The notes beneath the pieces were generated by a model that searched no databases, was not told the DNA's origin, and was given only the letters and a program-made list of their open reading frames with translations. Made by a program: the position numbers and the translations under genes. Below are positions 15,297 through 38,091 of a stretch of 64,000 bases of DNA, piece after piece. Every line of letters begins with the position of its first letter. The first letter of the stretch is position 1. Origin of the DNA: a virus (lineage: Duplodnaviria; Caudoviricetes); the IMG/VR virus record IMGVR_UViG_3300033066_000581, positions 1-64,000 of that record; one strand, written 5' to 3'.

Positions 15297-15361
15297 TCCA
15301 ACTCCTTGAAATCAATTTTCCTACTCTAGTTATGAAAATTGAAATCTTAGAAATTGATTTA

Positions 15362-16990
15362 CTAACTAAACACTAACACATCATCTTCAACCAAATCCTT
15401 AGCCATTATATATCCACGATTTTTGGTGAATATTTGGTGTTCGGGGGTGCATCTAATAACTCTACCAGTAACTTCATCTTCAATTTCTAATAGTTCGGCA
15501 TTGATCTTTGTAAGTGCTGCAGCGGTTATGGGTTTATATTCAACAGTTTCGGTATCTGTATTATATGAGGATGTTTTTACATCATGCCCAGATCTAACAT
15601 ATCCTACAACATCCACCAACGAAACCCCCCAAAGCGGGGTTTGATCAAGTATAATGTCTAGTTTGGAGTCACCAGTAAGACAAAGGTTCGTCATGGTGAT
15701 AGGCGCGACGTCTGGAAGGAATGGTCCTTGTTGGTTGACATTATCAACGTTCTGGATGTAGACCCGGCCGGTCTCCTTACGTTCTGTCAGGATCTGCTCC
15801 ATGAGTTCCTTAGAGCCCATGGTCTTCCGGCGGATCTTAGTGTTCCGTTCAGCCTTTTCGTAGATCTCCTTGAACTTAGCCTCATCGGCGAAGAAGGCTT
15901 CATATAGCCCTGGAACTTCTGATGGAGAGAAGAGTGAGACGTCTTGGCCGCTGATTAGTCGTTCATAAAGTAGCCGGTTGAGTTGGACGCAATAGTCCAT
16001 CTGACGAAGACGATTGTCATGAGTTCCCTTGTTGTTCTTCAGGACGATCATCTCTTCAAACTCAAGATGCCACCATTGGAAGCAAAGATTTGCTGAACCC
16101 CCACGCACCCCACCCTGAGAACAACTCTTGACTGCTGACTGCAAATATCGATAGAACGGGGTAACCCCAGTATGGGAAGTATCTCCTGCTCTAACAGCTG
16201 ATCCGGCAGCACGAATTCGCCCACCATTGATGCCTATTCCCGCCCTCTGGGAAACGTATTTGACGATTGCTGATGCAGAGGCATTAATTGAATCCAAAGA
16301 ATCGCCGGTGTCAATCAAGACACAGGACGAGAATTGGCGTTGTGGAGTCCGGACCCCGGCCATAATCGGCGTCGGCAGAGATAGGTCAAACTGAGATACT
16401 GCATCATAGAAATTCTTCACCCACTTGAGGCGGGTGTTCACCGGATAGTTCGAGAAAATCGTGGCCGCGATTAACATCATGGCGATCTGGGGGGTCTCGT
16501 AATATTCGTCAGTGACTCGGTTCTTGATCAGATACTTACCTCGGAACTGCTCCATGGCTGCATAGGTCAGGGTGAAATCCCTGTCATGATCGATGAAGGA
16601 ATTGATCCGATCCCATTCCCTTTCGGTATAGAGACCTTCCAGTTCCTTGTCATAGTACCCCAACTTAGCCACCTTCTTGAGTTGTTCCAAGATATGTGGT
16701 GGCTCAGGTTGATTATAGATCATCTTTCGTAGATGATAATTTACCAAACGACCAGCAACAAACTGGTAGTTGGGGGTATCTTCAGTGATCAGTTCTACAG
16801 CAGCTTTGATCAAGGTCTCTTGGATATCTGAGGTCTTGATGTTGTTATAGAATTGCAGTTGTGATTTTAGTTCAATCTCAGAAACGTTAACTCCGGAGAT
16901 CCCGTCACACGCCCAAACAACTACCTTGTTGAGCTTAGATATATCGAGGGCTTCTTTTGTCCCATCACGTTTTGTTACGGTAATCGGCAT
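15362..16990 (-). CDS. nrdA: NrdA N-terminal part followed by a 106-aa split-intein N fragment (15365-15682)
   Basis: ATP cone VTKRDG, PTPIMAGVRTP.RQFSSCVL, SQGGVRGG, TNL|CLTGDS, intein block B CTPEH. Confidence 0.95.
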   Translation of the reverse strand: MPITVTKRDGTKEALDISKLNKVVVWACDGISGVNVSEIELKSQLQFYNNIKTSDIQETLIKAAVELITEDTPNYQFVAGRLVNYHLRKMIYNQPEPPHILEQLKKVAKLGYYDKELEGLYTEREWDRINSFIDHDRDFTLTYAAMEQFRGKYLIKNRVTDEYYETPQIAMMLIAATIFSNYPVNTRLKWVKNFYDAVSQFDLSLPTPIMAGVRTPQRQFSSCVLIDTGDSLDSINASASAIVKYVSQRAGIGINGGRIRAAGSAVRAGDTSHTGVTPFYRYLQSAVKSCSQGGVRGGSANLCFQWWHLEFEEMIVLKNNKGTHDNRLRQMDYCVQLNRLLYERLISGQDVSLFSPSEVPGLYEAFFADEAKFKEIYEKAERNTKIRRKTMGSKELMEQILTERKETGRVYIQNVDNVNQQGPFLPDVAPITMTNLCLTGDSKLDIILDQTPLWGVSLVDVVGYVRSGHDVKTSSYNTDTETVEYKPITAAALTKINAELLEIEDEVTGRVIRCTPEHQIFTKNRGYIMAKDLVEDDVLVFS

Positions 16991-20802: not shown

Positions 20803-21344
20803 TTATTTGCTCCATCTATAGCAGCCTTAGTTTCTCTGACCCAGCTTTGTAAGGCAGTAAGCTGTTCTCGACATGCCTGAGCCGATGAATTGTTATCCAC
20901 GATCGTAGTTAGCGCAGCCGTGTCAGTGACACCGGAAGTTTCTGGTTTGGATGCTAGAGCTGGGTCAGACGGTTGACCCGTGGCAGATTGGTTATATACG
21001 TAAACCCATCCTTGAGATAGCTCAAACTGTGTGGGGACAACAGTATTGGCCTGGTTGACATATTCAGTTCGAACCCTGTCAACGTAACGAATTCTGTCCA
21101 CGTATTGGGTTACTACCCTATCAGAAACCTGTGACGAGGCTGTCCGGGCCCGTGACTCAGCATTAGCTAGCGCCAGTTTAATAGCTCCGACGCGTTTCTC
21201 ACATTGTACTTGTGCAGCCGCGACTCGTTTATCTCCATCTTTGATACCAGCAACGTAACCTGTACCACCAGCAGCCCCGATCACTAGTACTGCAGCCAAT
21301 CCCATGGCTGCATACTTATACGGGTTCGTAATATTTTCAAACAT
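20799..21344 (-). CDS. i-spanin (Rz-like)
   Basis: N-terminal TM, VVTQYVDRI, C-terminal C...LTALQSWV. Confidence 0.8.
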   Translation of the reverse strand: MFENITNPYKYAAMGLAAVLVIGAAGGTGYVAGIKDGDKRVAAAQVQCEKRVGAIKLALANAESRARTASSQVSDRVVTQYVDRIRYVDRVRTEYVNQANTVVPTQFELSQGWVYVYNQSATGQPSDPALASKPETSGVTDTAALTTIVDNNSSAQACREQLTALQSWVRETKAAIDGANK

Positions 21345-22015
21345 CAGTGTTCTCCACCATCTTTCTTCTTCATATATCCCTTCACAAAGTGCTTGGGGAT
21401 CTCTTTGTTGAACCGAAGTTCAGACAACGCATAGTACTCATGATCACCGGCGCTGGGGTTTTTCTTTTTCCAGCTCTCGTATTCTTCCTTATGAGCCATC
21501 CGCTTTCGCGACTCACCTACGTTTCCACCTAGGTTGTGGTCCATATGCTTCTCGGCCCAATCCTTTGGGATATGGAGTTTCACCACAGCTCGATGTTCGT
21601 GTGGGGTATTAACAGCCCCACCACCAGCAGATCTGAAGTTCGCTTCGCCACCGGACCCTGACATCGCAGCATATCCATGGGCAGTGTGGGGGTCGACGGC
21701 AACAGAGATATGACCTGTCTTCGGGTCCTTATGGGCCAGGCCATGTTTCAGGACAGAATGCAGATTTCGTTCATGTGTCCCGTGATAGGCTACGATATGA
21801 TCCTTGTCCTTATACCATCCAATATGTGGGTTCTTCTCGAACGGAACTTTATGCGCCTTGATGTCTTCTGATTCAACTAGACGTCTTCTCAGGATCTTCG
21901 GCTTCTTTTTCCTAGGCGGTTCACCGGATGGACCTACCCCGATACCTGCGACGGCTCCACCACCAGCCGCATTAGCTGGAGCATCTTCGTTAACGAAAGA
22001 CTTAAACTTCAGCAT
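21344..22015 (-). CDS. ADP-ribosyltransferase-like protein with a capsid-targeting-like leader
   Basis: YHGT...NL.SVLKHGL, S...TAHGYA, late Glu (SELRF); N-terminus MLKFKSFVNE. Confidence 0.6.
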   Translation of the reverse strand: MLKFKSFVNEDAPANAAGGGAVAGIGVGPSGEPPRKKKPKILRRRLVESEDIKAHKVPFEKNPHIGWYKDKDHIVAYHGTHERNLHSVLKHGLAHKDPKTGHISVAVDPHTAHGYAAMSGSGGEANFRSAGGGAVNTPHEHRAVVKLHIPKDWAEKHMDHNLGGNVGESRKRMAHKEEYESWKKKNPSAGDHEYYALSELRFNKEIPKHFVKGYMKKKDGGEH

Positions 22016-22418
22016 CTCGTATTCCTCTAAGTCTATCGATGATCAATTGATCCATTACGATGTCAGAAGAGATGATGGTGTTCCCAGACTTTCCGACGTT
22101 CTTTATTGTCTCTGGCATGTAATTCAACAGAACTAGAAACGGCTTCAGGTATTTATGATATCCATCAAGCTTCTGAAATAGTAATCGGGTGGTTGCCGGG
22201 ATCCCGAACACGTTATATAGGATGATAATATGATTGAGGATCAACCGTTCTTTGAGATCCCCAGTATCATGGTAACGCTTGAACAGCTTTTTGACGTACT
22301 TGAACCTCTTGATGTCTTCGTAAAACTCCTGGGTATCTGAGCATCCAGGGTTATCATAATGTTGGGCTGCATAAATTACAAAATTTTCATCGGTCAAAAC
22401 TTCACTAATCATGTTCAA
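22002..22418 (-). CDS. Conserved T4-like hypothetical protein
   Basis: HYDNP.C...EFYEDIKRFKY, LKERLILNHIIILYNVFG. Confidence 0.75.
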   Translation of the reverse strand: MNMISEVLTDENFVIYAAQHYDNPGCSDTQEFYEDIKRFKYVKKLFKRYHDTGDLKERLILNHIIILYNVFGIPATTRLLFQKLDGYHKYLKPFLVLLNYMPETIKNVGKSGNTIISSDIVMDQLIIDRLRGIRDAEV

Positions 22419-22687
22419 AACGCTGTTAGACTTACTCGCTTCAGTGTATTATTTGCAACAGCAATATAGAGGTAGGAAGCATCGTATAAAATGACTCCAG
22501 CCGCCACGTTAATTGTGGAGTTTGCTGGAGTTTGTGTTCTAATTGCCACGTTGGCAGCGCTGTTACCCAGAAGTGTGGCAACCGTCACCTTCTGGGTTCC
22601 ATCTGCAGATTCTATGATCAGTAACGAGTTGGCAGATGGCCCAGTGTTGGCATCCAATTCCGTTATCTTTCTAGCGCGTGTCGACAT
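22415..22687 (-). CDS. Small virion/fibre-associated protein
   Basis: KITELD...; YDASYLYIAVANNTLKRVSL fibre-type motif. Confidence 0.55.
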   Translation of the reverse strand: MSTRARKITELDANTGPSANSLLIIESADGTQKVTVATLLGNSAANVAIRTQTPANSTINVAAGVILYDASYLYIAVANNTLKRVSLTAF

Positions 22688-22704
22688 TATCTAAACCTTC
22701 AATA

Positions 22705-23523
22705 TTAGGAGTCTGGAAGCACTACGTCTTCGTTGTCGGCCGTCATCGACCCCATTGCAACTAGGGTTTCATATTGGACCCGACCTGCCCGACCGCCAGA
22801 ACCAACGGTGCGTAAGTTCCAACCGGCATGCGCAATCCCACGATTTCGACCACCAGAAACCACACCAACGGCCGTGGCGGTCTCACCGGTCAACGAATGG
22901 CCGGACTCATCAGCTACAACGATGACCAAGTTGGCAGGGGTTCCGCCCTTGGTTGTAGATAGCTTGATGCCAGTTGAGTTGGCAGACACAACGTAATACG
23001 ATGTGTTGTTCGTCAACGGAGTGATGGCGGTATTGCCAGCCGCGACCAGATACTTGATATAGTCATTGTTTTGATACTTGTTGGATGATACCAAGATAAA
23101 GTCATTAGCTTCGTCGACGCCCTGGGTATTGGCATTGAACGTCTTAGCAGCAGGAGCAGCAATCGTGATCCCGGGGGCAGTCGTATATGCGGAACCGGCG
23201 TCAGTAATGTTTACGGCACCAATGCGACCTGTAGAATTTGCCTGGGCGTTGCCCGTGGCGTTCCCGGTGATCGTGGCGGCCGCGTTGGCATGATACCCTG
23301 AACCACCAGATGTGATAATTGTCTGGATTAGAGACCCTGTGGCCACCGTGGCTTCGGTAGCATCCACACCAAACTGACCGACGGTTTGGCCAGTTACGAA
23401 GGCATCCGGAGTAACGTTGCCAAACAGATCAGTTTGGTTACCAACGTTTACAGTCTTATTGAACTGAGCAGGTAGGTAAAATACCGAGTTTGCTGCAGTG
23501 TCGTCCTTTTTCCACAATGACAT
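22705..23523 (-). CDS. Virion structural protein
   Basis: MSLW...HAGWNLRT.GSGGRAGRVQYETLVAM; GSGY/GSAYT.AP repeats; late promoter CATAAATA at 23566-23573. Confidence 0.7.
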   Translation of the reverse strand: MSLWKKDDTAANSVFYLPAQFNKTVNVGNQTDLFGNVTPDAFVTGQTVGQFGVDATEATVATGSLIQTIITSGGSGYHANAAATITGNATGNAQANSTGRIGAVNITDAGSAYTTAPGITIAAPAAKTFNANTQGVDEANDFILVSSNKYQNNDYIKYLVAAGNTAITPLTNNTSYYVVSANSTGIKLSTTKGGTPANLVIVVADESGHSLTGETATAVGVVSGGRNRGIAHAGWNLRTVGSGGRAGRVQYETLVAMGSMTADNEDVVLPDS

Positions 23524-23568
23524 AGTGGTGTTCTCCTAGAAGTTTCTTAGATGTTGTTTTCGTTTTAT

Positions 23569-25647
23569 TTATGAAGGCTTAGTTTTAGCTTTAGCTCTAC
23601 GCGCCTCAACGGCATCGTTGTGCTGACCTACTGTAAATGGCTTGGGCTTATCTGTGGATTTCAATCGCATTCTGTAATTTTTTCCAGCCTTCTTCCAGAC
23701 ATCATCCAGAGAAGCTTCTCCAATCTGTTCTTTCATAGCATAGGCAATGTGAACTTTAGGAACAAACAGTCTTCCGCGCTTACCTTTGCCATCCATATCG
23801 TAGCTTACATTATGGCCCCAAGCCTTAGTTGAGTGATCATTGGGGTTATGCTTGGTTGGCCCATGGCCCGAAACTGTACCGTAAACCTCATGATCTTCTA
23901 CTCGACCTTCTTTCCAACCTCCATCTGGGTGCTTAAATTTCACCCTTTGGTTTGGGCGAAAGCTAGGAGCCGTTGTATTTTCTTCCAGCTGTTCGTCTTC
24001 CTTGAAGAAACCCTTCTTGTTTTTGGCGTCGTCATTCAGCTTTTCGCGAGCTTTGGTACGCTTATCGCTGTTTTCTAGGTATTTGCTTAGATTGAAGGCC
24101 TTCTTCGGCTTCTTTCCTGGCCATTCCTGATAGTGAAAATCTGGTTTGGCCTCATCAATCTGTGTGTCCTCAGCGTTCATTACTGGGGATTTGGTTAATT
24201 TTCCATTAGGATAACCAGAGGAAGTTCTGCGCTTAAGTTCCTTGTCAACCAATTTATGATGATCAGCTGCCCCGGTTTTATTGCGGGGCTTTTGTTTATC
24301 ATAATAGTCTTGATATCCTCTCAACGTTGTTGTTGAATCGTTCTTTGTTCTGGTGATTAAATCTCTAGCCGATTCACTGCCATTACTATAGCGTTTGAAA
24401 TCACGTTTCAGCTCATCGATTTGTTCTTCTTCCAGCTTACCCTTGGCTTTAAGCCCAACAACTCTTCCTCGTTTGTTTCTATATCCTGTTTCAGAATCAT
24501 TATCTTGACGAATAGCGATGATGTCGCCGGCTTTTAATGCCCCAGACCATCTTTTATCAAACCCCCTTCCTGCCTCTCCGGATGGGTTTCTACCTGGTTT
24601 ACGGTTTGGATCACTATTCATTCTAGCGTGCAAATCTGCGTGTGCTTTAGCTTTATACGATTTTAATGTGTTGGTAGAGAGCTCGTCTAATTGTTCTTCA
24701 TCCAGTTTACCCTTGGCTCTGAGGCGATCTACGGCCGGCAGAGTGACCTTGGACTTCTTTTCTTCCTCAGAACCACCTGATTTGATGGTTGAACCGATAT
24801 GGCGCTTGAAATCGGCATGAGATTTAGAAATCTTGTTCTCGAAGTTGCCCTTCTCGATGGACGTTCTCATCATTCCATGCATTCTGATAGCCTTCAGAGC
24901 ATCAGCCATATGGACAGTGTGCTTCGATCCATCGCGGAAGGAAACAGGCTTGGCCCCACGGAGGGATTGAACCTTACGCATCTGCATGATGATGTTTTGA
25001 TCTGGCTCGTTACCTTCTTCCTCACCGGCTGCTAGAGGAGTCTTGCGTGGACGACCGCGGCCTTCATCAAGGGTTTCTTCGACTAAGTGGCCATTCTTCT
25101 TGATGGCATCCTTAAGGTTGGCGTGATATGCTTGGCTTGATGCTCCTGGCTTACCAGAATAGAAAGAATATTTCTTAGAATTGTTGCCGCGTTCAGCGTA
25201 GATTTCATGACCGTCCGGATGTCTGTACAGCGTTGTCGAGGTCTGACCAGAATTCACGTGGTTAACATGCTTATACCCTGCCGCATCTAGCTCATGGGCT
25301 TTGTATCCACGACCTTCATCAAGAATTGTCTTTGATTTTGCAAGTACAGCTCGAGCTGATTCGATCAGATCATCTGATAGTCCATAGTTCTTTTCTGCAG
25401 TCATGTCTTCATCTTCTCCGATAGATCTTGATCTCTTCAGTGCTTTACTGAAATATTTGGAACGGTTCTTGTATTTACGCTTGTCGGCTTCAGTAGCATC
25501 AGGTGTATAGATCTTACCCTGTAGCTCTCTGGCCTGTGACGTAGAAGCCTTCAGGTATTCTCTAGCTCTATTCGACGACATCTCACAAATCTCTGTCACC
25601 TTACTGATAAGGGAGTCAGATAATCCATAGTTCTTGGGAGATGACAT
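23569..25647 (-). CDS. Modular basic polyprotein, candidate internal head protein precursor
   Basis: Repeated acidic linkers (ILDEG, TLDEG, EEQLDELS, EEQIDELK, TQIDEA, EQLEEN, EQIGEA) separating K/R/H-rich modules; late promoter GATAAATA at 25678-25685. Confidence 0.65.
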   Translation of the reverse strand: MSSPKNYGLSDSLISKVTEICEMSSNRAREYLKASTSQARELQGKIYTPDATEADKRKYKNRSKYFSKALKRSRSIGEDEDMTAEKNYGLSDDLIESARAVLAKSKTILDEGRGYKAHELDAAGYKHVNHVNSGQTSTTLYRHPDGHEIYAERGNNSKKYSFYSGKPGASSQAYHANLKDAIKKNGHLVEETLDEGRGRPRKTPLAAGEEEGNEPDQNIIMQMRKVQSLRGAKPVSFRDGSKHTVHMADALKAIRMHGMMRTSIEKGNFENKISKSHADFKRHIGSTIKSGGSEEEKKSKVTLPAVDRLRAKGKLDEEQLDELSTNTLKSYKAKAHADLHARMNSDPNRKPGRNPSGEAGRGFDKRWSGALKAGDIIAIRQDNDSETGYRNKRGRVVGLKAKGKLEEEQIDELKRDFKRYSNGSESARDLITRTKNDSTTTLRGYQDYYDKQKPRNKTGAADHHKLVDKELKRRTSSGYPNGKLTKSPVMNAEDTQIDEAKPDFHYQEWPGKKPKKAFNLSKYLENSDKRTKAREKLNDDAKNKKGFFKEDEQLEENTTAPSFRPNQRVKFKHPDGGWKEGRVEDHEVYGTVSGHGPTKHNPNDHSTKAWGHNVSYDMDGKGKRGRLFVPKVHIAYAMKEQIGEASLDDVWKKAGKNYRMRLKSTDKPKPFTVGQHNDAVEARRAKAKTKPS

Positions 25648-25680
25648 AGCGTTATTGGCCTTTTCTAGTATTCTCTGTAT

Positions 25681-26637
25681 TTATCTACGTGGTCTTCCAC
25701 GCTGATCAGACAGATAACGGCCAATACGATCAGATTGTGTGAATGGCTTTTCTTTAGCCATACCAGACTCGGTGACCGCCTTCAAGGCCTTATGGAAGTG
25801 GGCAGCCAACCCATCAGAGATCCCGGAGTGATCAGCCATCTTCAAGGCGTTTGGAACCCGGTTGTGCGGGTGCTTGTCGACAAATTCCTTGACCTTAGCA
25901 ATCTGTTCCTTAGTCCCGCGGTATTTGTCAAAATGCCCGGCCGGGTGCTTTTCTCCCATCTCAGCAGACGTCTTGATTGTGTGATCGATATCAGAATTCC
26001 ATTTGGCGTGGGCATCATCGATGGCCTTATGTTTGTAGTTCACTTCCGTCGACTCTGTCACAGCCCTCTTCAGCTTCTGGCCGGCCAGGATCGCACCAGC
26101 CATACGCTTGTCGAACTTCTTCCCAATCTTTGGTCGATCAAACTTATCACCAACCATAGCCTTTCGATCAGCATAATTATCGTCCAGATATTTGTTCAAA
26201 GCCCCCTTTGAAAGCTCGTGGATCGTAGTGGTTTCTTCCTTGATCTTCTTTTTGCTTGGGTTCATACCCTTCGTGGCTAGGCGCCGGGCAACAGTCATTA
26301 GTTGATCATCGCCAGTTGAGAGTTGAAGCAAAGCCAATGCGGCCAATAGATAGTTTGTGTTCACTGGGTTCGAACCATCTACGACGCGGTTCAGAGCCCC
26401 GGCGATCATGATCGCCAGGCTCTTTTTGGATGTGGTTGGGTCTGATGGATCTCCAGGAGGAGTGGCATCTTCGGTGATATCAGATAGAGTAGCAACCATA
26501 CCAGACGACATTTCATGAACGGCTAGGACTCCGGCACTAAACTTTGGTGGGTGCATTGGAGAAACGGGGGTGATATCAGTTGCTATCAGATGGTCCATAT
26601 ACCTGGACTTGATGGAACGTTCGAGTGATTTGGTCAT
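25681..26637 (-). CDS. Modular protein, candidate internal head protein
   Basis: VHEMS, ITED, IKEE, IHELS, AVTES x2 linkers; ELS..L..Y module. Confidence 0.6.
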   Translation of the reverse strand: MTKSLERSIKSRYMDHLIATDITPVSPMHPPKFSAGVLAVHEMSSGMVATLSDITEDATPPGDPSDPTTSKKSLAIMIAGALNRVVDGSNPVNTNYLLAALALLQLSTGDDQLMTVARRLATKGMNPSKKKIKEETTTIHELSKGALNKYLDDNYADRKAMVGDKFDRPKIGKKFDKRMAGAILAGQKLKRAVTESTEVNYKHKAIDDAHAKWNSDIDHTIKTSAEMGEKHPAGHFDKYRGTKEQIAKVKEFVDKHPHNRVPNALKMADHSGISDGLAAHFHKALKAVTESGMAKEKPFTQSDRIGRYLSDQRGRPRR

Positions 26638-27335
26638 TTTTTCGGCTCCGTAATGCCTCTTCGTTTGGCTTCTTCAGCTTTCCATTGTTTGGCCAACTGA
26701 GATTGTGGGGGTTTGGAAGCCCACGCCCTGATTTTTCTGTGAGTATGATCTAGGTTGTCAACATCCTCAGTATCGTTGTTAACTACGTGAAGGTGCTCAG
26801 GCCCGAAGATACGTTGGTATTTACCTAAGTTATTTTGGACACCTTCCCAGGACTTCTGAACGATATTTCTAGGAATGACCCTAGGTCTGCGTTCATTTCT
26901 GGCGTGTGCCGTCGAGGCCTTGGTATTTACGAAGACCATCTTGGTGTCATATCCTAGAGACTTGAAGTGACTATGGAGTTTGGCCAGCTTCTCGTAGTCC
27001 TTACCGGTTCCATCGATGACAACCCCCTGACGCCCGTGGATGGCTAACTTCTGCTTTACTTCGATAGTCTTCTTGGCTCTCTGCCGGACGGCATCTCTAG
27101 CCTTAGCTTCTCTGTCTGGCATTTTTGGATCTAATCCATGTTTAGCCATCATATGTTCGAATGCGATGTCAGAGTTGATCTCAGTTAGCCCCAGGGTCTT
27201 CAAGGCAAGTTTCTTGGCCACGTACGACTTTCCTGACCCAGGGCCGCCAGCTAGAAATACAGCCTTGAACTTAGCAGGGTCATGAATGCCCTCCGTGATC
27301 AATTCTGGGTCATAGGTCTCTAGGAAGGATTTCAT
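26634..27335 (-). CDS. Zeta-toxin-like P-loop kinase
   Basis: KAVFLAGGPGSGKS, INSD, VIDGTG, ARN.RR.R; leader MKSFLE...LITEG. Confidence 0.75.
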   Translation of the reverse strand: MKSFLETYDPELITEGIHDPAKFKAVFLAGGPGSGKSYVAKKLALKTLGLTEINSDIAFEHMMAKHGLDPKMPDREAKARDAVRQRAKKTIEVKQKLAIHGRQGVVIDGTGKDYEKLAKLHSHFKSLGYDTKMVFVNTKASTAHARNERRPRVIPRNIVQKSWEGVQNNLGKYQRIFGPEHLHVVNNDTEDVDNLDHTHRKIRAWASKPPQSQLAKQWKAEEAKRRGITEPKK

Positions 27336-28246
27336 TACTTTTTGACTTCGCTGACCTTATGTGCACCGATACTATTCAGATATTCCCGGCCGGCGTTGTT
27401 GAATGCGTGGTTGGTACGAAACTTACCAGCCTTGGTTCTATAGATGTGGACGGATGCATCTGGGTTTCTGTCTTTATCGAGACTCTTTTTTGCGCTAGCT
27501 TCAGCCTCGGCCGGAGAATCGTAGTCCAGAGATTCTGAAACGTTAACGTGTGTATGGAGTTGATTGTGGTCGGCATAGGATCCTAGTCGAGCGCCAGAAA
27601 TTCCAGCAGCTCGAAGTCGATCGATGATCTTAGCACCCGTTCTGGTGTGGGTATTATAGACATCACTTTGCCGATCACTAGCATTTCCAATTTCTGATTG
27701 GATATGAATCTTGCTTCCGGCATGGCCTACAATGCGATGTTCGGGGCCCAAGGCCTTTTGTAATTTACGCACGTCAACCGCCTCAGAGACAGCTGCCGGT
27801 CCTTTCAGGACACTCGCCAGGCGCTTCTGCTCAGCCTGTTTGATCCTTGGGTAGAGCTTCTTTGCTAAATTGCGAATGGCCTTGATTCTCTTTTCGGTCA
27901 TCTGATCAATCTGGATCTTTTCTGATGATGATAGTTCCTGGTAACGCAATCCGCGATCACCTGCCACCTTTCGTCTGACGATTTCTCTGGCCGCAGCCGC
28001 CGATCTCTTTTTGAGATTCTTGTCACCAGCCATTCGGCGTCTGGCAACCTCGCGTGATCTCTTGAGCTTGGGTTCAATCCGACGAATAGCCATTGCTCTC
28101 TTCATGCGCTGTGGAATCGTCAGGACTGCTTCGTACACGGTCCCATCGGTGGTAGGACTGAAGTCGATCTTATCCTTCTTCGTACTTTTGCCAAGAGTTG
28201 CCTTCTTCTTGGCTGGATTCTTCTTTGTTAGGTCTTCATCAGCCAT
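27335..28246 (-). CDS. Basic modular protein, candidate head core protein
   Basis: YEAVLT..QR.KRA...RR helical basic domain, then VSEA/VSES linkers; late promoter GATAAATA at 28280-28287. Confidence 0.6.
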   Translation of the reverse strand: MADEDLTKKNPAKKKATLGKSTKKDKIDFSPTTDGTVYEAVLTIPQRMKRAMAIRRIEPKLKRSREVARRRMAGDKNLKKRSAAAAREIVRRKVAGDRGLRYQELSSSEKIQIDQMTEKRIKAIRNLAKKLYPRIKQAEQKRLASVLKGPAAVSEAVDVRKLQKALGPEHRIVGHAGSKIHIQSEIGNASDRQSDVYNTHTRTGAKIIDRLRAAGISGARLGSYADHNQLHTHVNVSESLDYDSPAEAEASAKKSLDKDRNPDASVHIYRTKAGKFRTNHAFNNAGREYLNSIGAHKVSEVKK

Positions 28247-28278
28247 CTATTGCGTCCTTCAAGATATAATTCAATTGC

Positions 28279-28716
28279 TTATTTATCCCAACCAGTAGAA
28301 AAATGAATAACCAATGACCCATACTGGGGAAGGTCTTTTGTCCGGATGGTATACGGTAGTTTGGTTCCAGGAATTAGGGTGACCCTAAACTCAACACTAC
28401 CTAGCATGAAATAAACCTTGGTCTCTACGTCAATTTTATCATACGGCACCGAGACATAGTATACACCATCAAGCCCAGGAGTTTCTAGAACTCTATAGAT
28501 AACGTCATACGTTGTTCGATCATGATCCCATTGTGGTTTAGGAACTGGGTTAATATTCTTTAATACCCAGTCGTATGAGGATGAGATCTTCTTGAACTGT
28601 TCCTCACCATCAGGATTGAGATCCGGATGGTATTTCATGGCTAGCTTTCGGTATGCCGACTTGACTTCAGTTATTGTTGCTGAGCGGTCGACCCCAAGTA
28701 TATCAAAATGATTCAT
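28279..28716 (-). CDS. DnaJ-domain protein
   Basis: FDILGV...[18 protein letters not shown]...FKKI. Confidence 0.85.
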
Positions 28717-29350
28717 GGACGTAAATGGTATCGGCGGCCACTTGATTGATTGACCTATAACCAAGTGTGCTTAGGAACTGATGCACCTCAGAATGTTCAC
28801 CGCAGTTCTCGCCGACAATACATGGCTTGTATCTCTTGATCGTCTCGATAGCACCCTTCAGGACGTTTATCTCATAGCCTTCGACGTCAAGTTGGATCAA
28901 ATCACATGACTTCAGATCCATGGAGTCGATCGTCATGATAGGGATAAAGGCATCAGGTTCATCGATGACCTTGTGCATCCCGACGTTGTCATCACCAGAT
29001 CTAAGAACGCTGATGAACCCGTTATGATCACCCAGGGCAGTATTGTATTTGATCACGTGATCGAAGGGATTATTCAGGACTAAGCAATGGAAGTTGATAC
29101 CGTCGGGTTCAAACGTATAGACGTGCTTGAAGATATCTGCATAAAATCTAGTATACATTCCGCAGTTACCACCGGCAGTGATCACCGTATTGAAATCTTT
29201 GACGTAGTTAAACATCCGTTGTTTATGTTGGGTCTCCCAATCATTCTTGGGACCTTCCCAGGCGCCGTTATCACCTACAGCCCACCACCAACCCTTGATG
29301 CCGTTGGCCTCGGCATCCTCACGATATTCAATTCTCTCTAGGAAGTTCAT
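28703..29350 (-). CDS. FkbM-family methyltransferase
   Basis: [27 protein letters not shown]. Confidence 0.85.
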
Positions 29351-29934
29351 TCTGATCCTTTTCTCACATCATCGTAAAGTTCCTTGGCGTGTTGATCTGA
29401 CACGTGGCCAGGGACGCCTTTTCGGAACGACTTAAAATCACCGGACTTGGCATGGTCACGCATCTTGGATGCTGACATGCCGGCAGTTCCCTCAGCATCA
29501 GGGTCTCTGTGCCCAGCAGACACGACCTTGATGTGCTTGAAGTTGAACTCCTTGCCGTTGTACTTGTGTAATAATTTATGCATCTCCTCAACCCTATCTG
29601 ACCCTGCAACCATGGTCAGATGAGTATACCCTGCTGCGTTGAGCCGCTTTGCGTGGTGGATGAACGACGGGTGTTCTTTGGATGATGCGTGGATATTAGC
29701 TCCAGGAAAAAACCGCTTGGCGTGCTTAAGTTTTTGAGCCGCGGTTAACGGGTTCTTTTTAGCATCTTGGGTATGTGAAACTACGATCTCATGATCGGCA
29801 TGTTGTTTCTTGGCTTCGGACTTCACCTTCTCCACAAGCTTTTCATGCCCAGTAGTTGGGGGATTCATCCGGCCAAATGCGAATACAACGTGCTTGTCGG
29901 TTGACTCCGCAATGAATGTGGTGAAAGTCTTCAT
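29347..29934 (-). CDS. HIGH-class (cytidylyltransferase-like) nucleotidyltransferase with a capsid-targeting-like leader
   Basis: FGRMNPPTTGH, KNPL, VAGSDR, SAG.RDPD, MSASKMR; N-terminus MKTFTTFIAE. Confidence 0.85.
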   Translation of the reverse strand: MKTFTTFIAESTDKHVVFAFGRMNPPTTGHEKLVEKVKSEAKKQHADHEIVVSHTQDAKKNPLTAAQKLKHAKRFFPGANIHASSKEHPSFIHHAKRLNAAGYTHLTMVAGSDRVEEMHKLLHKYNGKEFNFKHIKVVSAGHRDPDAEGTAGMSASKMRDHAKSGDFKSFRKGVPGHVSDQHAKELYDDVRKGSE

Positions 29935-29936
29935 GG

Positions 29937-31019
29937 TTAATCCCTTATGAAATTTTGTCTGGAGAACTCATGACGATTTACTAGTTTTGTGGGTTGGTTT
30001 CCCTTAGAGATTACAAATCCCTCAGGCTTGGCCTTCTTTCCGCGGATACTGTGTTCAAATTCAGAGGTGTGTGACAGCGAATCAACTAATGCATTTTTTG
30101 CTTGTTGGAGATGGTGGTGCACCTTCAAGATTTGGTTAAATCCAGAGTGGTGTGCCTCAACGTGGCTAAGACGCTTTTCAAGCTCGGCACGCTTACGGTC
30201 TTTGGCTGCTGCAGTAGAAACCTTATCGATTTCCTTCAGGCCTTTGTTCAGCAAAAATTGGTGATATCCGGTTGCTGATGGTTTCGATTCGTCTCTGATT
30301 GTGGAGTTGATGTACGTTGGAAGCGTTGTGGAATGATCCTCCAAGGCCTTAAAAGTCTTTGAATCCACCTTATTTCCATGGAACTTAGCAGCCATGAGAT
30401 TCTTCTTGAATTTATTCTCCAACCTATCTGGCATCTTGTGCGATGACAGATCTAAATCTGCTGGAATGTTGTGCACATCATGGCTATCCTTGAAATTGCC
30501 ATGATCTACGTTGAAGCCTGCCGACATGTCTTCTAAATCTTTACCGTGATACTTAGTATGGACTACGATACCGAGTTTAGCCTTAGCAACCTTTTGCCCT
30601 TGCTTAGTTTCCATGGGTGTTGAATATGTAATTGTGTTGGGCTTAAAGTGATACTTACCATCAGATGTGGTGACGTCATCGTGCGTATACATAAGATCCC
30701 CCTGATATACCCCCTTCTTCGGAGCAATCTTGGGTAGATGCTTCAGGGCAGACTGAAGCTTGTATACAAGACCTGGCGCATGGCCATGATTCTTCTCAAC
30801 GTCGTCATCTGTATAGTTGATCTTCGGTGTTTTATTGAATGCAGATTTGGAAGCCACGAAGAACTTACCGGTTTTTGGGTGGTGGCCAAAAACGACACTT
30901 GGCGAATTATGAACTAATGCGGCCGAATCTCCAAGCACTATGAAAAAATTCTCGGCGGCGGTTGTAATATCATATGAGGTTTCCGGCTCAGAATGCCGAA
31001 TGTTTGTGACCTTCATCAA
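29937..31019 (-). CDS. C-terminal part of a KxDG ligase-like protein (DUF6267-like, from recall), preceded by a 37-38-aa split-intein C fragment (30906-31019)
   Basis: SYDITTAAENFF...LVHN|SPSVVFG; QGDLM, F.PNTITY, EGFV, KLVNRHEFS (ligase motifs III/IV/V-like). Confidence 0.85.
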   Translation of the reverse strand: MMKVTNIRHSEPETSYDITTAAENFFIVLGDSAALVHNSPSVVFGHHPKTGKFFVASKSAFNKTPKINYTDDDVEKNHGHAPGLVYKLQSALKHLPKIAPKKGVYQGDLMYTHDDVTTSDGKYHFKPNTITYSTPMETKQGQKVAKAKLGIVVHTKYHGKDLEDMSAGFNVDHGNFKDSHDVHNIPADLDLSSHKMPDRLENKFKKNLMAAKFHGNKVDSKTFKALEDHSTTLPTYINSTIRDESKPSATGYHQFLLNKGLKEIDKVSTAAAKDRKRAELEKRLSHVEAHHSGFNQILKVHHHLQQAKNALVDSLSHTSEFEHSIRGKKAKPEGFVISKGNQPTKLVNRHEFSRQNFIRD

Positions 31020-31686
31020 TTAACCTTTCGCGAATATTTGAGCATATCTTTAGGAAAGCGGGGTCATCCGCATTGCTGTTGCCTTTTATGGTATTTATAT
31101 ACCTCAAACAAAATACTATATTACTTGGATTTGACAGCTCCTCAGGAGATATGTTGAAATGATAACCATATACTACTGAAATTTTATGATCCACACAACG
31201 TTTAAGGTAATCATTCGGGTTTGGGGTATTTAATAATTCATCGATGAATTCAATTCCAGTATAGTAGCAATATTTTGGCTTAACTAGCTTTCTAGTCATT
31301 TGCTTTGTGTAAAAATATACTTGCTTTCTATAGTTATTAAGATCTTCTATATAATGCAATTCAGTTTTGGGTATGGAATTCCAGGCTTTGATTTCAGCCG
31401 TTCTAAGAGAAGAATTGTTTTCCACACCGTATTTTGCCAGCATTGTTTTCTTAATACCAGCCTGACGATGATCAGATATTGCTTTGGATTTGGCATTATA
31501 TACACCAGAATCTTTTAGAAACTGTCTTAGTCGGCCTGTTGAAACCCCAAACTGTTTCGATATCGTTGGTATATGTTCAGATATTGCCCAAGCCGAAAGC
31601 AATTCTTCTTTTTGGTTGGCAAAAACCGCTTTATTCTTTTCTCGTCTATCAATAATTAACTTTTGGTCTGGGTTTAAATTAGCCAA
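30988..31686 (-). mobile_element. Free-standing HNH-type endonuclease between the intein halves
   Basis: CYYTG...VDHKISV...SNIVFCLRYINTIKG; KYGVEN; AT-rich. Confidence 0.75.
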
Positions 31687-31696
31687 TTTGAATCCT

Positions 31697-31731
31697 AATA
31701 AGATGGTGGGTTACCAGCAATCTTATTTATC
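31697..31731 (-). promoter_or_regulatory. Late promoter GATAAATA (31724-31731) plus hairpin AATAAGAT/ATCTTATT abutting the HEG RBS
   Basis: 8-bp perfect stem; promoter overlaps the upstream stop codon. Confidence 0.65.
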
Positions 31732-32241
31732 AAGTAATGAAATTCCAAATATATCATCACCAATGTTAAGATCTTTTGCCTCAATCCATTGCCCAGATGA
31801 CAACATAACCTGATGATCATCAGTCACTTTGATAATATGTTGTGCATCTAATTCAATTTCAACCCAGGCCTTATCCCCAAGATACGCCAGCTTATCTAGA
31901 ACTTGAGTGAATTCTATTTCTCCAGCCTTGTTATACCCCAGAACCTTTAAATTTGAAGACGTAGACCAATTTTCAAATATCTCTTTAATAGACATAACTC
32001 CGTGTGTCTCAGTCAGCAATTCTGTGTTGCCTGAGACACACCCATCCCACTTGGTGCTGATCTTATGCCCAGTGTCTTCACCTGCCATAGTTTTCTTGGC
32101 GTGTTCTAAAGTATTGATTGCATGCTTCAGGCCGGCAGCACCAGCATTAATGGGGTGATCTTCTAAATGCTCAAGATGTTTAAGCTTAGAAGTCTCAAGG
32201 CCGGTGGATTCTGTCAAGTATTCTTTGAATGTCAATGTCAT
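31723..32241 (-). CDS. N-terminal 67 aa of the KxDG protein plus a 105-aa split-intein N fragment (31726-32040)
   Basis: HLEHLED...STKWDG|CVSGNT; block B VTDDH; WIEAKDL.IGD; leader MTLTFKEYLTE. Confidence 0.88.
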   Translation of the reverse strand: MTLTFKEYLTESTGLETSKLKHLEHLEDHPINAGAAGLKHAINTLEHAKKTMAGEDTGHKISTKWDGCVSGNTELLTETHGVMSIKEIFENWSTSSNLKVLGYNKAGEIEFTQVLDKLAYLGDKAWVEIELDAQHIIKVTDDHQVMLSSGQWIEAKDLNIGDDIFGISLLDK

Positions 32242-32260
32242 GATGATATTTATTACCTTA

Positions 32261-33340
32261 TCAATTCTTCCTGAACCTGTAATCGGCCATAATCATGTTC
32301 GGATATGATCCTCCGACTTTATTGCGGAAATTTAGGTTGATCAGCAATTCTGGTGTCTTTATGAAGACGGAAACTTTCTTGGCAGCACCTGGATTTGGGT
32401 ATCTAACCACAACATCCTGAATGGTGGTGAAACGTTCAAGCATAGCTGGGGTCATGGGAAAGGAATGAATGTGGCCACGATCCTTGTGCACCAGATGAAA
32501 CCCATAGCCGATACCGGTCTTCAAGAATTTCTGAAGTCTACGTTTATCTATCTTGGATGTGACGTTGATATCCTCGAACCCGCCCCTAGTTGCCTGTCTT
32601 CCGCCATAGGAATTGAACGTGGAACAGAACCTGGCGTTATCCACCCCCACCATATCTAGGAGAATTTTACCCTGTGGGTTGGTGATAATGCCTTGTTTTA
32701 TTTCAGCCTGAGGGATCATCTTGGCCACACCGATGTTGAAGAATGTGACAGTCGGGCCAAATTTAAGAGACATATGCACAACACCTTTGTCGTGTATCAC
32801 GTCGACGTCCGTAACAGTCTTTCCAACATCATGATCATTCAAACTGCCGATATACGGTTGATTGCCGGAAACTCCCATAGGTCTTCGTTGATTCAATGCC
32901 CCCATCGCCTTAACGTGTAGCCCAGATTTATTTTCCAACCCATATTTTTGGAATAGCCCCATGACAAACCCGCGATGTTCAATCTTAGGATCCTCAGAGT
33001 CGGCGATGTACCGATTGATATCGTCGATCAATTCACCCTCAAAAAGATTTCCACGGTTGTTGGTACCTAGGTTTCCCCTGGATCCGTTTCCCCAAGCAAA
33101 ACTTAAGCTCTTGAATTGAGACTTGAGATCTTGAAGCTTGATCGGCCCGTTAAGCTGTCTCAGTACTTTTATCTTTTGAGGAGCCTTGGGATCCATAGAA
33201 AAAGGTCCCTGCGCTTCTGACGAAGGGACCTTTTTTATAACATACGAATACGCCTTAACCAGATCCTCTGAGATCTGTGGCTTGGAGGTTTTGATGACGA
33301 TTACGTCATGGAGGTTTTTCGGAATAAGATTATAAGCCAT
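32261..33340 (-). CDS. PD-(D/E)xK-like nuclease-fold protein
   Basis: GNLFE...KTVTDVDV...MSLKFG; late promoter CATAAATA at 33345-33352. Confidence 0.5.
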   Translation of the reverse strand: MAYNLIPKNLHDVIVIKTSKPQISEDLVKAYSYVIKKVPSSEAQGPFSMDPKAPQKIKVLRQLNGPIKLQDLKSQFKSLSFAWGNGSRGNLGTNNRGNLFEGELIDDINRYIADSEDPKIEHRGFVMGLFQKYGLENKSGLHVKAMGALNQRRPMGVSGNQPYIGSLNDHDVGKTVTDVDVIHDKGVVHMSLKFGPTVTFFNIGVAKMIPQAEIKQGIITNPQGKILLDMVGVDNARFCSTFNSYGGRQATRGGFEDINVTSKIDKRRLQKFLKTGIGYGFHLVHKDRGHIHSFPMTPAMLERFTTIQDVVVRYPNPGAAKKVSVFIKTPELLINLNFRNKVGGSYPNMIMADYRFRKN

Positions 33341-33354
33341 TCATTATTTATGGC

Positions 33355-34571: not shown

Positions 34572-35603
34572 CTATTCTCCGTTCTTTAAGAGCCACGCGT
34601 TAGAAATCACCTTGAAGCTCTTGTTGGGGTCGTCAAGATTCTTGAAGACCACACCTTCACGTAGCTTGGCATTGATAGAAGGACCATCAGCATACTCCAG
34701 AGCTTCTTCCATAGTCATATCAAAGGCCAGGCCAATATCAATCACTGGCGCATGCTTTAATTCTAGAAGTTCGATGATAAGACGCCGATCAAATGCATTT
34801 ACATATCCACGAGATTCATCGAAGATATCAAAGACGAAGAACTCAAGCTCCTTCAGGCCTTCCTTGTTGCCTTGGACACCAGGACCCATCAGTTCGCCTT
34901 GGATAGCGACGTTGTCATAACCGTTCTCGATCATCATTTCTTCGATCTTAAGGGCCCTGGCCACGCGCCAGAAGGAATTATCCTCAGTCTCGATCAGGTC
35001 AAGGTTCCGTGAACAAACACCAAACCGGCCTTCATGTCGGTAAACGGTCATCGATGAACCATCAAGCTTCATCGTCACCTCGTAGTAGCCATGGAGCTTG
35101 TCGACATCCAGGTTCTGGATACGTTCTTGGTCCGTCTTCCGAAGGAATGACGGGAAGTTGCCACGGACCTTGCCAGCAAGATTGGCAGGAATCACGGGTT
35201 CCCACTTCTCGACACCACAAATCTCGGTCAGGTCCTCTTCAGCCTCGTAGGCCCGAAGCACCCATTCAAAGAAAGCTACCTCTTTAGACTCAGCAGCGAA
35301 AACGTTGATCGGATGAAGCGCCAAGCCTTGTGAAAGCTGGCCGCGGAGCTTGATCGTTTTGATCCGAGCGCCTTCCTTGCCGTTCCATGTGATCTTGTTC
35401 TTCACCAGGAATTTGAACGGTTCCTGATCGACTGGCACGAAGGAGTCGATCTCGAAATAGACGCAGATGTCACCTTCTTGGAATTCATTCTTCTTAACAA
35501 CCGCTTGCCATCCACCGATCTTGGCTAGTTCGATGGCATCAGCGCCTTCGATAGGAAGGATCTCGTCAATACGACGAAGGGTAACTAGTTTACGTTCTGA
35601 CAT
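34572..35603 (-). CDS. RNA ligase, DRB0094/Rnl5-like (N-terminal OB domain)
   Basis: PIEGAD.IE, YFEIDS, LRGQLSQGL, KTDQERIQN, KLDGSS, QGELMGPG.Q.N, REGVVFK, SFKVISN. Confidence 0.9.
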   Translation of the reverse strand: MSERKLVTLRRIDEILPIEGADAIELAKIGGWQAVVKKNEFQEGDICVYFEIDSFVPVDQEPFKFLVKNKITWNGKEGARIKTIKLRGQLSQGLALHPINVFAAESKEVAFFEWVLRAYEAEEDLTEICGVEKWEPVIPANLAGKVRGNFPSFLRKTDQERIQNLDVDKLHGYYEVTMKLDGSSMTVYRHEGRFGVCSRNLDLIETEDNSFWRVARALKIEEMMIENGYDNVAIQGELMGPGVQGNKEGLKELEFFVFDIFDESRGYVNAFDRRLIIELLELKHAPVIDIGLAFDMTMEEALEYADGPSINAKLREGVVFKNLDDPNKSFKVISNAWLLKNGE

Positions 35604-35609
35604 ATTTCC

Positions 35610-35955
35610 TCAGGCAGCTAGACGGTTAAGAGTTTCAGTGTTCGCTTGCATCTGGGCGATCACACAGGCGGAAGGTGTTGCATCTGACACGAACGGAACG
35701 GTATAATACAGGTCCACTCGTTCATCATCAACCACATACATTCGTTGGAACATAAGGACGTCACCGGTGCAGTTGACGAACTCGATATCCATGATGGTTT
35801 TGAGTTCAGCTCGAGTCAGAGCCCCATCGATAATTAGCGTCACCTCGAAGGCCTTTGCATCAAGCCGAAGTGGATCGTCACATGTTGGGTTGAGTAGATT
35901 TAGGGAAAGGGCTTCGGCCGGAGTGACGTCCGTAAGCCAGTAACGACGTTGCATC
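35610..35955 (-). CDS. Hypothetical protein (probable start MQRRYW)
   Basis: Fills the operon between the kinase and the ligase. Confidence 0.5.
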
Positions 35956-36459
35956 TTAGTTGTTTTCATCATAGGGGATAATAACGATGTAGTTAAAACC
36001 TTCATCGAAGGTCGGGGCGACGTAGGTGTTCCGCATCGAACTGATGATATGCGGAGGAATGGTTTTGCCAGGTCGGCCGGCAAGACGTTCATTCAGAACG
36101 TCTTCAGGCACCTCGAAGACGATAGCGACCTTGCGATACTCAGGAGGGAAACGAGCCAGCTTCTTACGACGAGAGTTAACGGTCAGGTTCGTCTGATCCC
36201 AGATGACATCGCGCCTCGACTTGATAGCTTCGGCTAGAAATAGGTTCATGACAGCCGTAGCATCTTTGATATTGTCCTCAAAGACGTCATCATACGTGAG
36301 ACCATGGTCTTTAGCGATCCGATCGATATGATAGTCAGTGCTGTAATAGAAGAAATCCCGGGCCCGCTGGAGGGCTGGCCCGAGGTTCTTTTCTGAATAC
36401 GTCGACTTACCGGAACCAGGAAGCCCAACGAACATATAGAGGACAGGTGGATTTTTCAT
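35956..36459 (-). CDS. P-loop polynucleotide kinase-like protein (kinase domain only)
   Basis: VGLPGSGKST, STD, WDQTNL...SRRKKL, R..RPGK.IP, PTFDEGF. Confidence 0.8.
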   Translation of the reverse strand: MKNPPVLYMFVGLPGSGKSTYSEKNLGPALQRARDFFYYSTDYHIDRIAKDHGLTYDDVFEDNIKDATAVMNLFLAEAIKSRRDVIWDQTNLTVNSRRKKLARFPPEYRKVAIVFEVPEDVLNERLAGRPGKTIPPHIISSMRNTYVAPTFDEGFNYIVIIPYDENN

Positions 36460-36465
36460 ATTACC

Positions 36466-36494
36466 ATCATATCATAGTGCACAGAAAAGTACAC
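36466..36494 (-). promoter_or_regulatory. Early promoter GTGTAC-N17-TATGAT-N6-ATG
   Basis: Repeated motif. Confidence 0.85.
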
Positions 36495-36496
36495 AA

Positions 36497-36874
36497 CTAT
36501 TTTTCGAAGCGGACGATCAAATCCTTCTTCAAGATCTTAACAGGGTTGTCCATAGCAAACTCAACGAAGGCCCAAGTTTCCGTAACCCCCCGGACATATC
36601 CTACCAGTGCACGTCGGCCGTATTTAGTAAACGCATCACGATCAGAAACTGCAGCGCCGATCGTTACCGGTAGTTCCGGAAGGGGCGGAATAGCTTTAAT
36701 CTCGTCATAGGCAAAACTAAGCTCAGCCCCAATACCGGTATTATTATCGACAACAATCACAACCTTGGTTTGGTTTGGAACAACTCTCTGGATTTCGGCT
36801 TCAACCAGGATCTTATCACCCGGTTGAAGTGCCTCGATTTCCTTGCTGCTGAAAATGAATCTACGTTCAGTCAT
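36497..36874 (-). CDS. Hypothetical protein (probable start MTERRF)
   Basis: Overlaps the rnlA stop. Confidence 0.5.
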   Translation of the reverse strand: MTERRFIFSSKEIEALQPGDKILVEAEIQRVVPNQTKVVIVVDNNTGIGAELSFAYDEIKAIPPLPELPVTIGAAVSDRDAFTKYGRRALVGYVRGVTETWAFVEFAMDNPVKILKKDLIVRFEK

Positions 36875-38090: not shown

Positions 38091-38091
38091 C

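Follow-up and report, generated by a model that had tools for sequence, protein, structure and literature searches.

Do enzymes encoded close together in an uncultured phage travel inside its virions and enter the host with the DNA? The question is raised by positions 21344-32241 of IMG/VR record IMGVR_UViG_3300033066_000581, a 93,271-bp phage contig of a T4-like myovirus, whose first 64 kb (positions 1 to 64,000) is hereafter the window. A preliminary description of this block had assigned one T4-like N-terminal leader to four unrelated enzymes, namely a HIGH-motif nucleotidyltransferase, a KxDG ligase-like protein, an ADP-ribosyltransferase (ART)-like protein and a zeta-like kinase, and had proposed that they are packaged and ejected together. 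Its open reading frames (ORFs) and N-termini are as it gave them. On the statistics below, three of the four leaders are real and lie far from chance, and the kinase is a doubtful member of the set. Loading into the prohead directed by a capsid targeting sequence (CTS), trimming by a gp21-type protease and delivery with the DNA form the best explanation, and in our judgement a probable one, given the sequences, their conservation and the virion proteome of one relative.

Leader peptides of the T4 internal-protein type

The CTS of the T4 internal proteins (IPs) is said to go back to Mullaney and Black in 1996. It opens IPII and IPIII, and also IPI and Alt, and is removed by the gp21 prohead protease (PMC3012670, PMC9026906). 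In the T4 genome (NC_000866), IPII and IPIII start MKTYQEFIAE, IPI starts MKTFKEFTST...ITE and Alt starts MELITELFDE. In the block studied here, MKTFTTFIAE/S opens the nucleotidyltransferase, MTLTFKEYLTE/S the ligase-like protein, which belongs to family DUF6267, and MLKFKSFVNE/D the ART-fold protein (a slash marks the predicted cleavage point). The strongest leader in the genome, MVQSFKSFLTE/K, begins a 197-aa protein at 87408-88001 (+), outside the window. The four ends (IAE/S, LTE/S, VNE/D and LTE/K) fit the gp21 cleavage context (L/I)-x-E, and the tag has the consensus M-[KLI]-[STK]-F-x-x-[FY]-[LI]-x-E. Codons differ among the four leaders, so the constraint acts on the peptide.

A loose rule, hydrophobic-x-Glu within the first 16 residues, fits 26 of the 126 ORFs and is therefore not evidence by itself. 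The strict pattern [FY]xx[FY][LIVM]xE, scored over 29,440 residues of predicted proteins, occurs from residue 4-5 in ORFs 21344-22015, 29347-29934, 31723-32241 and 87408-88001, with only five more matches elsewhere; by our own arithmetic, about 0.04 N-terminal matches would be expected against the four seen. A position weight matrix (PWM) was then built from 182 distinct non-self homologue leaders of aquatic origin, with this genome and its close relatives left out. It gave 15.3 bits for the ART-fold protein, 18.9 for the nucleotidyltransferase, 20.0 for DUF6267 and 22.0 for the 197-aa protein, compared with 6.5 for the next ORF and a maximum of 13.3 across 25,408 internal positions. When all ATG, GTG and TTG codons in the six frames of the genome were scanned, no further start reached 10 bits, and the four tagged starts stand more than 8 bits above every other start. 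As a positive control, 36 kb of T4 DNA yielded just two hits with the PWM, ipII and ipIII, at 16.2 bits each. The kinase N-terminus, MKSFLETYDPELITE/G, fails the PWM test; the leader shared by four enzymes in the preliminary description is thus borne out for three of them and not for the kinase.

The leader is also kept within the families, as judged by the homologues listed that score at least 10 bits with the PWM. The nucleotidyltransferase family has more than 1,800 hits at E 1e-10 or better, and 72 of 119 homologues carry the tag directly before the conserved FGRxNPPTxGH core, while a cyanophage-type subgroup starts MAKDKKIVTA and has no tag. The tag is present in 48 of 76 homologues of the ART-like protein, one of which starts MKTYQEFILE, and in 88 of 119 for DUF6267. 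The family of the 197-aa protein, on which the PWM was untrained, comprises 458 representative clusters, with 43 of 150 homologues passing. Where present, the tag ends with [LI]-x-E immediately before the conserved core.

Virion data are available for a relative, cyanophage S-CREM2, in which mass spectrometry of CsCl-purified virions lists 52 of 221 proteins (PMC10665884). We scored the whole S-CREM2 genome with the PWM. Three annotated starts reached at least 10 bits, those of the ORF154 cytidylyltransferase (MKNFSSFLTE, 20.4), the ORF14 kinase (VKRFDAFLTE, 13.5) and ORF136 (MQTFSMFFSE, 10.5), and all three proteins are in the virion list (hypergeometric p ~0.012, own arithmetic). Looser tags begin four further virion-detected proteins: the ORF6 SAM hydrolase (MKDFDSFLEE), ORF12 (..LRFASFMAE), ORF13 (MKDLHSFLTE) and ORF15 (MNFSEFNE). 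Their neighbours ORF8, ORF10 and ORF11 were undetected in virions and carry no tag. The S-CREM2 authors report these detections and name no targeting signal, and they state that cyanophage virions often yield kinases and cytidylyltransferases, including the S-CRM01 kinase g130 (PMC10665884). We find that g130 starts MISFDQFLSE and that the S-CRM01 cytidylyltransferase g127 starts MKLFNQFFKE. Our literature search gave no text match for 'DUF6267', and linked capsid targeting with cyanophage cargo nowhere beyond a T4 review.

The enzymes behind the leaders

The KxDG ligase-like protein had been described as the ORF at 31723-32241 (-). This ORF does carry the leader (32209-32241, -) and a KWDG motif, but it holds only an N-extein and an N-intein, with the rest of the enzyme at 29937-31019 (-). 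Pfam DUF6267 covers positions 2-48 of the family in the N-half, followed by Intein_splicing (E 1e-5), and positions 48-372 of 376 in the C-half (E 2e-82). The gene is thus divided, right after KWDG, by a predicted split intein. The N-extein (residues 1-67, 32041-32241, -) ends TKWDG, and the N-intein (residues 68-172, 105 residues, 31726-32040, -) starts CVSGNT and has a TDDH block B at 140-143. The C-intein (30906-31019, -) comprises 38 residues ending VHN, followed by S39, the first residue of a C-extein that starts SPSVVFGHHP (29937-30905, -); the true start of the C-half is likely the ATG at 31016. The hallmarks of a split intein are therefore present, i.e. G67/CVSGNT (the slash here marking a splice point), the TxxH block TDDH and VHN/S39. 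The splice junction was mapped against unsplit homologues, which read TK[WY]DG/SPS[IV]VFGHHP, and the joined exteins (67 + 322 = 389 aa) are 87% identical to the unsplit 389-aa protein P0205 of a close relative. Between the halves, overlapping the start of the C-half, sits a free-standing ORF of 232 aa (30988-31686, -) with a weak match to phrog_1035 'endonuclease VII' (E 2e-5) and no Pfam match even at E 0.1. Other C-halves, such as P0231 and P0314, have a similar C-intein-like N-terminus. As only the N-fragment is tagged, entry of DUF6267 into the head would require prior trans-splicing or a non-covalent complex held together by the intein halves. Elsewhere in the window, the genes for DNA polymerase (3070-6385), NrdA (13538-16990) and the large terminase (52824-55645) are each split by a GIY-YIG-like ORF; the NrdA C-half opens with a C-intein (Intein_splicing E 3e-9), and residues 72-108 of the terminase C-half give a weak intein signal.

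The residues K64, D66 and G67 of the KxDG motif, which reads KWDG at K64-G67 here, are invariant in 61 DUF6267 sequences. The motif corresponds to motif I of the covalent nucleotidyltransferases, whose lysine becomes nucleotidylated. An AlphaFold2 (AF2) model of the unsplit orthologue P0205 has a pLDDT of 92. Compared with known structures by VIA, it is closest to the RNA ligases NgrRnl (Z 9.0 over 183 residues), REL1 (8.0), Rnl2 (7.7), Trl1 (7.5) and Rnl1 (7.0), with DNA ligases below them (Z 6-6.9). Foldseek places archaeal DNA ligases first, weakly (E 6.5e-3). The model supports a ligase-type nucleotidyltransferase fold for DUF6267.

The second tagged enzyme of the block, the 195-aa nucleotidyltransferase (29347-29934, -), matches phrog_3041 (E 9e-69) and Pfam CTP_transf_like (PF01467, 22.5 bits against a cut-off of 21). 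It keeps both motifs of the fold, (T/H)xGH and SxxxxR, with T27, G29, H30, S154, K157 and R159 invariant. No significant match was found in the PDB by sequence or profile, the best being MJ0951 (E 0.045) and PPAT (E 0.3), and for this reason we do not adopt the name NMNAT. The earlier label of an NMNAT/cytidylyltransferase-like enzyme holds at the level of CTP_transf_like and the HIGH motifs, with NMNAT proper no more than a candidate identity. This gene is linked to DUF6267 in several ways. The two are adjacent in P-HM2 and one small ORF apart in Melnitz, and in HTVC008M they are separated by a 170-aa ORF and the kinase. One PHROG profile, phrog_455, merges the two families, and the DUF6267 homologue list holds proteins of 583-602 residues, long enough to be candidate fusions. 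We found no comparable linkage of the ART-fold protein to either of them. The proposal that the enzymes act together is hence favoured by candidate fusions and synteny for the DUF6267/nucleotidyltransferase pair, but not for the rest of the set.

The third is the 223-aa ART-fold protein (21344-22015, -), for which structure comparison supports the expected fold. An AF2 model built from 67 homologues has a mean pLDDT of 84, with residues 1-48 forming leader and linker (9-28 disordered) and residues 49-223 the folded domain. Foldseek ranks Tpt1 first (E 6e-4), then KptA, DarT and the pertussis toxin S1 subunit, and all 50 rows listed by VIA are ADP-ribosyltransferase folds, KptA having Z 9.1 with a root-mean-square deviation of 2.1 over 86 residues at 21% identity. 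H78, G79, T80, S104, Y115, R142, E199 and R201 are invariant in the family, and H78, S104, Y115, R142 and E199 among them are candidates for an H-Y-E or R-S-E catalytic triad; Pfam PARP scores 17.8 bits, under the cut-off of 26.7. The protein is not a Tpt1 proper, because only the NAD lobe aligns (chain residues 93-180) and the RNA-binding lobe is absent. A second cleavage site, LVE/S, had been suggested downstream of the leader, and close relatives do keep L-x-E/S at residues 46-49 (LVE, LME or LTE). Residues 11-48 (21872-21985) comprise a disordered Gly/Ala-rich module, DAPANAAGGGAVAGIGVGPSGEPP, then a basic stretch ending LVE. A near-identical module, MTKTIKEDAPANAAGGGAVAGIGVGPQGEP, opens an unrelated 126-aa metagenomic protein (P0200), and the module may be a mobile N-terminal cassette; BLASTP found no similarity between it and S-CREM2 ORF160. 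In the Vibrio phage K471 group (157-kb phages; positions 1879-5486 of the K471 segment analysed), an ART-fold homologue lacks a leader of its own and follows, in another frame, a 1026-aa protein starting MALFKQLVE/S.

The kinase (26634-27335, -; 233 aa, pI 9.9) is of the P-loop zeta/AAA_33/Pnk-like type, with matches to Pfam Zeta_toxin (E 3.7e-15) and phrog_505 polynucleotide kinase (E 1.7e-11), and among proteins of solved structure its sequence comes closest to the T4 Pnk kinase domain (E 0.025). Its homologues have a short N-terminal peptide ending in Glu before the conserved core, as in MKTFAELQE/GVYDP of Melnitz and MIPFILKE/GLYDP of HTVC008M, and its ELITE/ recalls the MELITE/ of Alt.

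The 197-aa protein contains 12.2% His and 13.7% Lys, and has no Pfam, PHROG or PDB match; a language-model lead to a GNAT identity was weak (0.82) and was rejected. Its start codon, TTG, immediately follows the stop codon of a UPF0227 esterase gene, and esterase and 197-aa domain are fused in two metagenomic relatives. By His plus Lys content, the top five ORFs are this protein, the nucleotidyltransferase (His 9.2%, Lys 12.8%, pI 9.7), the ORF at 61222-61809, the ART-fold protein and the DUF6267 C-half, with pI 9.4-9.7 compared with a median of 6.3; the kinase and three enzyme-less proteins of the block come next. Such a composition suggests life next to nucleic acid. Within the families it is not associated with the tag (pI 9.6 in both groups, p 0.09). 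Being independent of the tag, it supports association with DNA, not the tag itself.

Head-assembly genes, late-promoter-like boxes and neighbouring genes

The genome has tail sheath and gp20-type portal genes, and its portal shares 51-55% identity with the portals of Stenotrophomonas phage DLP_6 and T4-like cyanomyophages. It encodes a gp21-type prohead core serine protease at 62205-62885 (+) (Pfam Peptidase_S77 E 6.3e-36, phrog_207 E 5e-80), a gp22-type scaffolding core protein at 62911-63879 (+) (Pfam T4_CASP E 1.6e-59) and, by Pfam search, the Gp23 capsid protein from 63935. The components needed to read a T4 CTS are thus present: the protease would be expected to cleave behind the leader Glu, and the scaffold to serve as docking partner of the leader. 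The predicted maturation site of the capsid protein, ALLTE/S at residue 62, resembles the leader ends YLTE/S and FLTE/K. Peptidase_S77 was present in all five phages tested, and does not separate those with tagged from those with untagged homologues.

Boxes of the form NATAAATA stand at 32247, 28280, 25678 and 23566, as first described. ATAAATA occurs 19 times (9.9 expected) and TATAAATA eight times (1.9 expected). The genome has 25 NATAAATA sites, of which, by our own count, 16 precede a same-strand start codon by 3-42 nt; the genes for tail fibre, sheath, scaffold and capsid are among those so preceded. The operons that hold all four genes of the preliminary description are headed by boxes at 23566, 25678, 28280, 31092, 31724 and 32247. 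The AATAAATA box at 32247-32254 (-) precedes the ATG of the DUF6267 N-half by only 5 nt, and an TATAAATA box at 31092-31099 (-) is 72 nt upstream of the C-half, with the nucleotidyltransferase gene next on the same strand. The GATAAATA motif occurs 37 nt upstream of the endonuclease ORF, and again at 28280-28287 (-), 33 nt upstream of a run of genes for a 303-aa protein, the kinase and a 318-aa protein, which overlap by 1-4 nt. The CATAAATA box at 23566-23573 (-) lies 42 nt upstream of the run 22705-23523, 22415-22687, 22002-22418 and 21344-22015 (-), which ends in the ART-fold gene. As far as a motif can tell, the boxes fit late expression. Four NATAAATA boxes (4892-4899, 32247-32254, 33345-33352 and 53881-53888) lie 3-7 nt from a start codon, in the position of a ribosome-binding site; such near-start boxes could reflect leaderless late mRNAs or a second role of the motif.

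Several neighbouring genes encode basic proteins. Within or behind the late-box operons at 23569-28246 (-) are three K/R-rich proteins of 692, 318 and 303 aa (pI 9.6-10.3) with no family matches; these probably also serve as internal head proteins. The portal-protease interval at 60338-61809 (+), the position of T4 gp67/gp68, is occupied by two more basic proteins lacking family matches. The second of them (61222-61809, +) is His/Lys-rich, with no Pfam or PHROG match, and starting from an internal Met it would read MEQLITE/L, much as T4 Alt opens with MELITE/L. Just upstream of the block, at 34572-38123 (-), lies a leaderless RNA-repair-like set, namely an RNA ligase with a PHA02142 OB domain, an AAA_33 kinase and a T4 Rnl1-like ligase. 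With these untagged RNA ligases and a second AAA_33 kinase, the phage also has an ordinary RNA-repair set. The gene at 32261-33340, upstream of the DUF6267 N-half, has no leader, and comparison ruled out homology to P-HM2 gp161 and to the tagged gene that opens the Melnitz cluster. A Megablast search with the block found no match among 50,697 phage records.

Probable virion loading, its alternatives and known systems

The results suggest the following model. The tagged genes would be expressed late, and the tag would carry their products into the prohead scaffolding core, where the gp21-type protease would remove it after the Glu; the ART-fold protein would probably be cut again after LVE48. 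DUF6267 bears its tag on a 172-residue N-fragment, and its bulk would be loaded only once trans-splicing has linked the tagged N-extein to the C-extein. Once mature, these basic, His/Lys-rich enzymes would share the head with the DNA and exit alongside it when the phage infects, like T4 IPI-III and Alt. By analogy with T4 IPI and Alt, which act after injection (PMC12373910), we infer that injection may occur in this phage too; the enzymes may also serve against host defences. The packaging proposed in the preliminary description is therefore well supported, if indirectly, by the IPII/IPIII-type tag, the protease, scaffold and Gp23, the conservation in the families and the S-CREM2 virions, but not for the kinase.

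Several observations weigh against this model. The kinase leader lies outside the top 25 of the PWM and is not of the IP type, so its membership of the cargo is weak. The S-CREM2 authors allow that the enzymes are abundant contaminants of the CsCl preparation (PMC10665884). Leaderless cyanophage homologues, such as that of P-HM2, are equally basic; as cytidylyltransferases are often found in cyanophage virions, the tag may not be the sole route into the head. The fold matches of DUF6267 and the ART-fold protein are modest (Z 9.0-9.1), and no more than 4-5 nt separate the boxes at 32247 and 33345 from the ATG, an odd spacing for a -10 element.

As for function, the likeliest chemistry would be nucleic-acid end joining by the KxDG RNA-ligase-like protein coupled to nucleotidyl transfer, together with an NAD+-using ART-fold enzyme. 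A more ambitious proposal, which we put forward tentatively and consider somewhat unlikely as a whole, is that the phage delivers in its virions a kit for healing and sealing nucleic-acid ends with its own NAD+ chemistry, acting before phage gene expression. Such a kit might comprise DUF6267, the coupled HIGH nucleotidyltransferase, the Tpt1-related ART-fold enzyme and possibly the Pnk-like kinase; it might counter, for example, RNA-cutting or NAD+-depleting host defences, and loading of its ligase would depend on trans-splicing.

Among the alternatives to delivery of active enzymes, the one that survives best holds that the tag does load the head, and that the proteins work there or serve mainly as basic counter-ions of the DNA or core components. 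T4 IPs are themselves small basic proteins, the tagged proteins here are extremely basic and rich in His and Lys, and the block also has the enzyme-less basic proteins of 692, 318 and 303 aa. However, the invariant catalytic signatures (K64-D66-G67; T27-G29-H30; and, as candidate catalytic residues of the ART fold, H78, Y115 and E199) point to selection on activity, and Alt and IPI of T4 work after injection; we regard this alternative as unlikely. Still less should be expected of the view that the N-terminal peptide serves translation initiation, folding, turnover or the membrane, its likeness to T4 being convergent and the virion detections being contamination, a concern that the S-CREM2 authors themselves raise. 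The leaderless homologues of cyanophages such as P-HM2 and of PA5oct, which has a prohead protease, would agree with it. Yet the peptide pattern holds while codons differ, the PWM retrieves the validated T4 tags and nothing false besides, the tag always ends with [LI]-x-E directly before the conserved core, and all three PWM-positive S-CREM2 starts belong to virion proteins, which together make such another role very improbable. That such short N-termini resemble one another by chance, as the many ORFs fitting the loose rule might invite one to think, is scarcely credible given the strict matches, the PWM gap and a pattern found on hundreds of homologues; it is refuted for three of the four reported enzymes and could hold for the kinase alone.

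If head loading by the tag is correct, its significance goes beyond this phage. To our knowledge, most described bearers of the T4 head-loading tag are small internal proteins of T-even coliphages. In this aquatic phage, a distant T4-like relative, the tag is borne by enzymes, and hundreds of metagenomic homologues have kept it. The tag would offer a simple sequence-level reason for the recurrence of cytidylyltransferases and kinases in cyanophage virion proteomes, and ten residues would suffice to predict the injected cargo of an uncultured phage from its sequence alone. DUF6267, uncharacterised and present in hundreds of cyanophage records, is nominated as a ligase-type enzyme delivered at infection.

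Compared with known systems, the DUF6267 protein shares with RNA ligases (NgrRnl, T. brucei REL1, T4 Rnl2 and fungal Trl1) the invariant Lys of KxDG and a predicted fold (Z 9.0-7.2), whereas sequence similarity is undetectable and its C-terminal helical part has no match. Like T4 Alt, the ART-fold protein combines an ART fold with an N-terminal propeptide in a T4-type phage, and an Alt-like (E)LITE/ motif is carried by the kinase and the 61222-61809 protein; unlike Alt, the ART-fold protein has 223 aa rather than 682, its nearest structure is the Tpt1/KptA NAD lobe, and its leader is of the IP type, not the Alt type. The virion enzymes of S-CREM2 and S-CRM01 include the same nucleotidyltransferase family with the same tag, but the S-CREM2 kinase is APH-type and the one here is P-loop type. 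The closest parallel to the leaders is that of T4 IPII and IPIII, with a tag of 10-11 residues, an [LI]-x-E end and basic cargo, MKTFTTFIAE matching MKTYQEFIAE at 7 of 10 positions; in contrast to T4, the phage is a distant aquatic relative, and its cargo consists of mid-size enzymes of families unknown in T4, namely DUF6267, a CTP_transf_like enzyme, an unclassified ART-fold protein and the 197-aa family, with one cargo gene split by an intein. Finally, the split gene resembles the fractured genes of Dassa et al. 2009, in which a free-standing endonuclease gene lies between the halves of a split intein (PMC2677866). The order N-extein/N-intein, endonuclease ORF, C-intein/C-extein is the same, and NrdA here is arranged likewise. 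The eight enzyme types listed there do not include DUF6267. It differs also in that its insertion lies directly after KxDG and its N-half is tagged, which makes this copy a testable case of whether trans-splicing precedes capsid loading.

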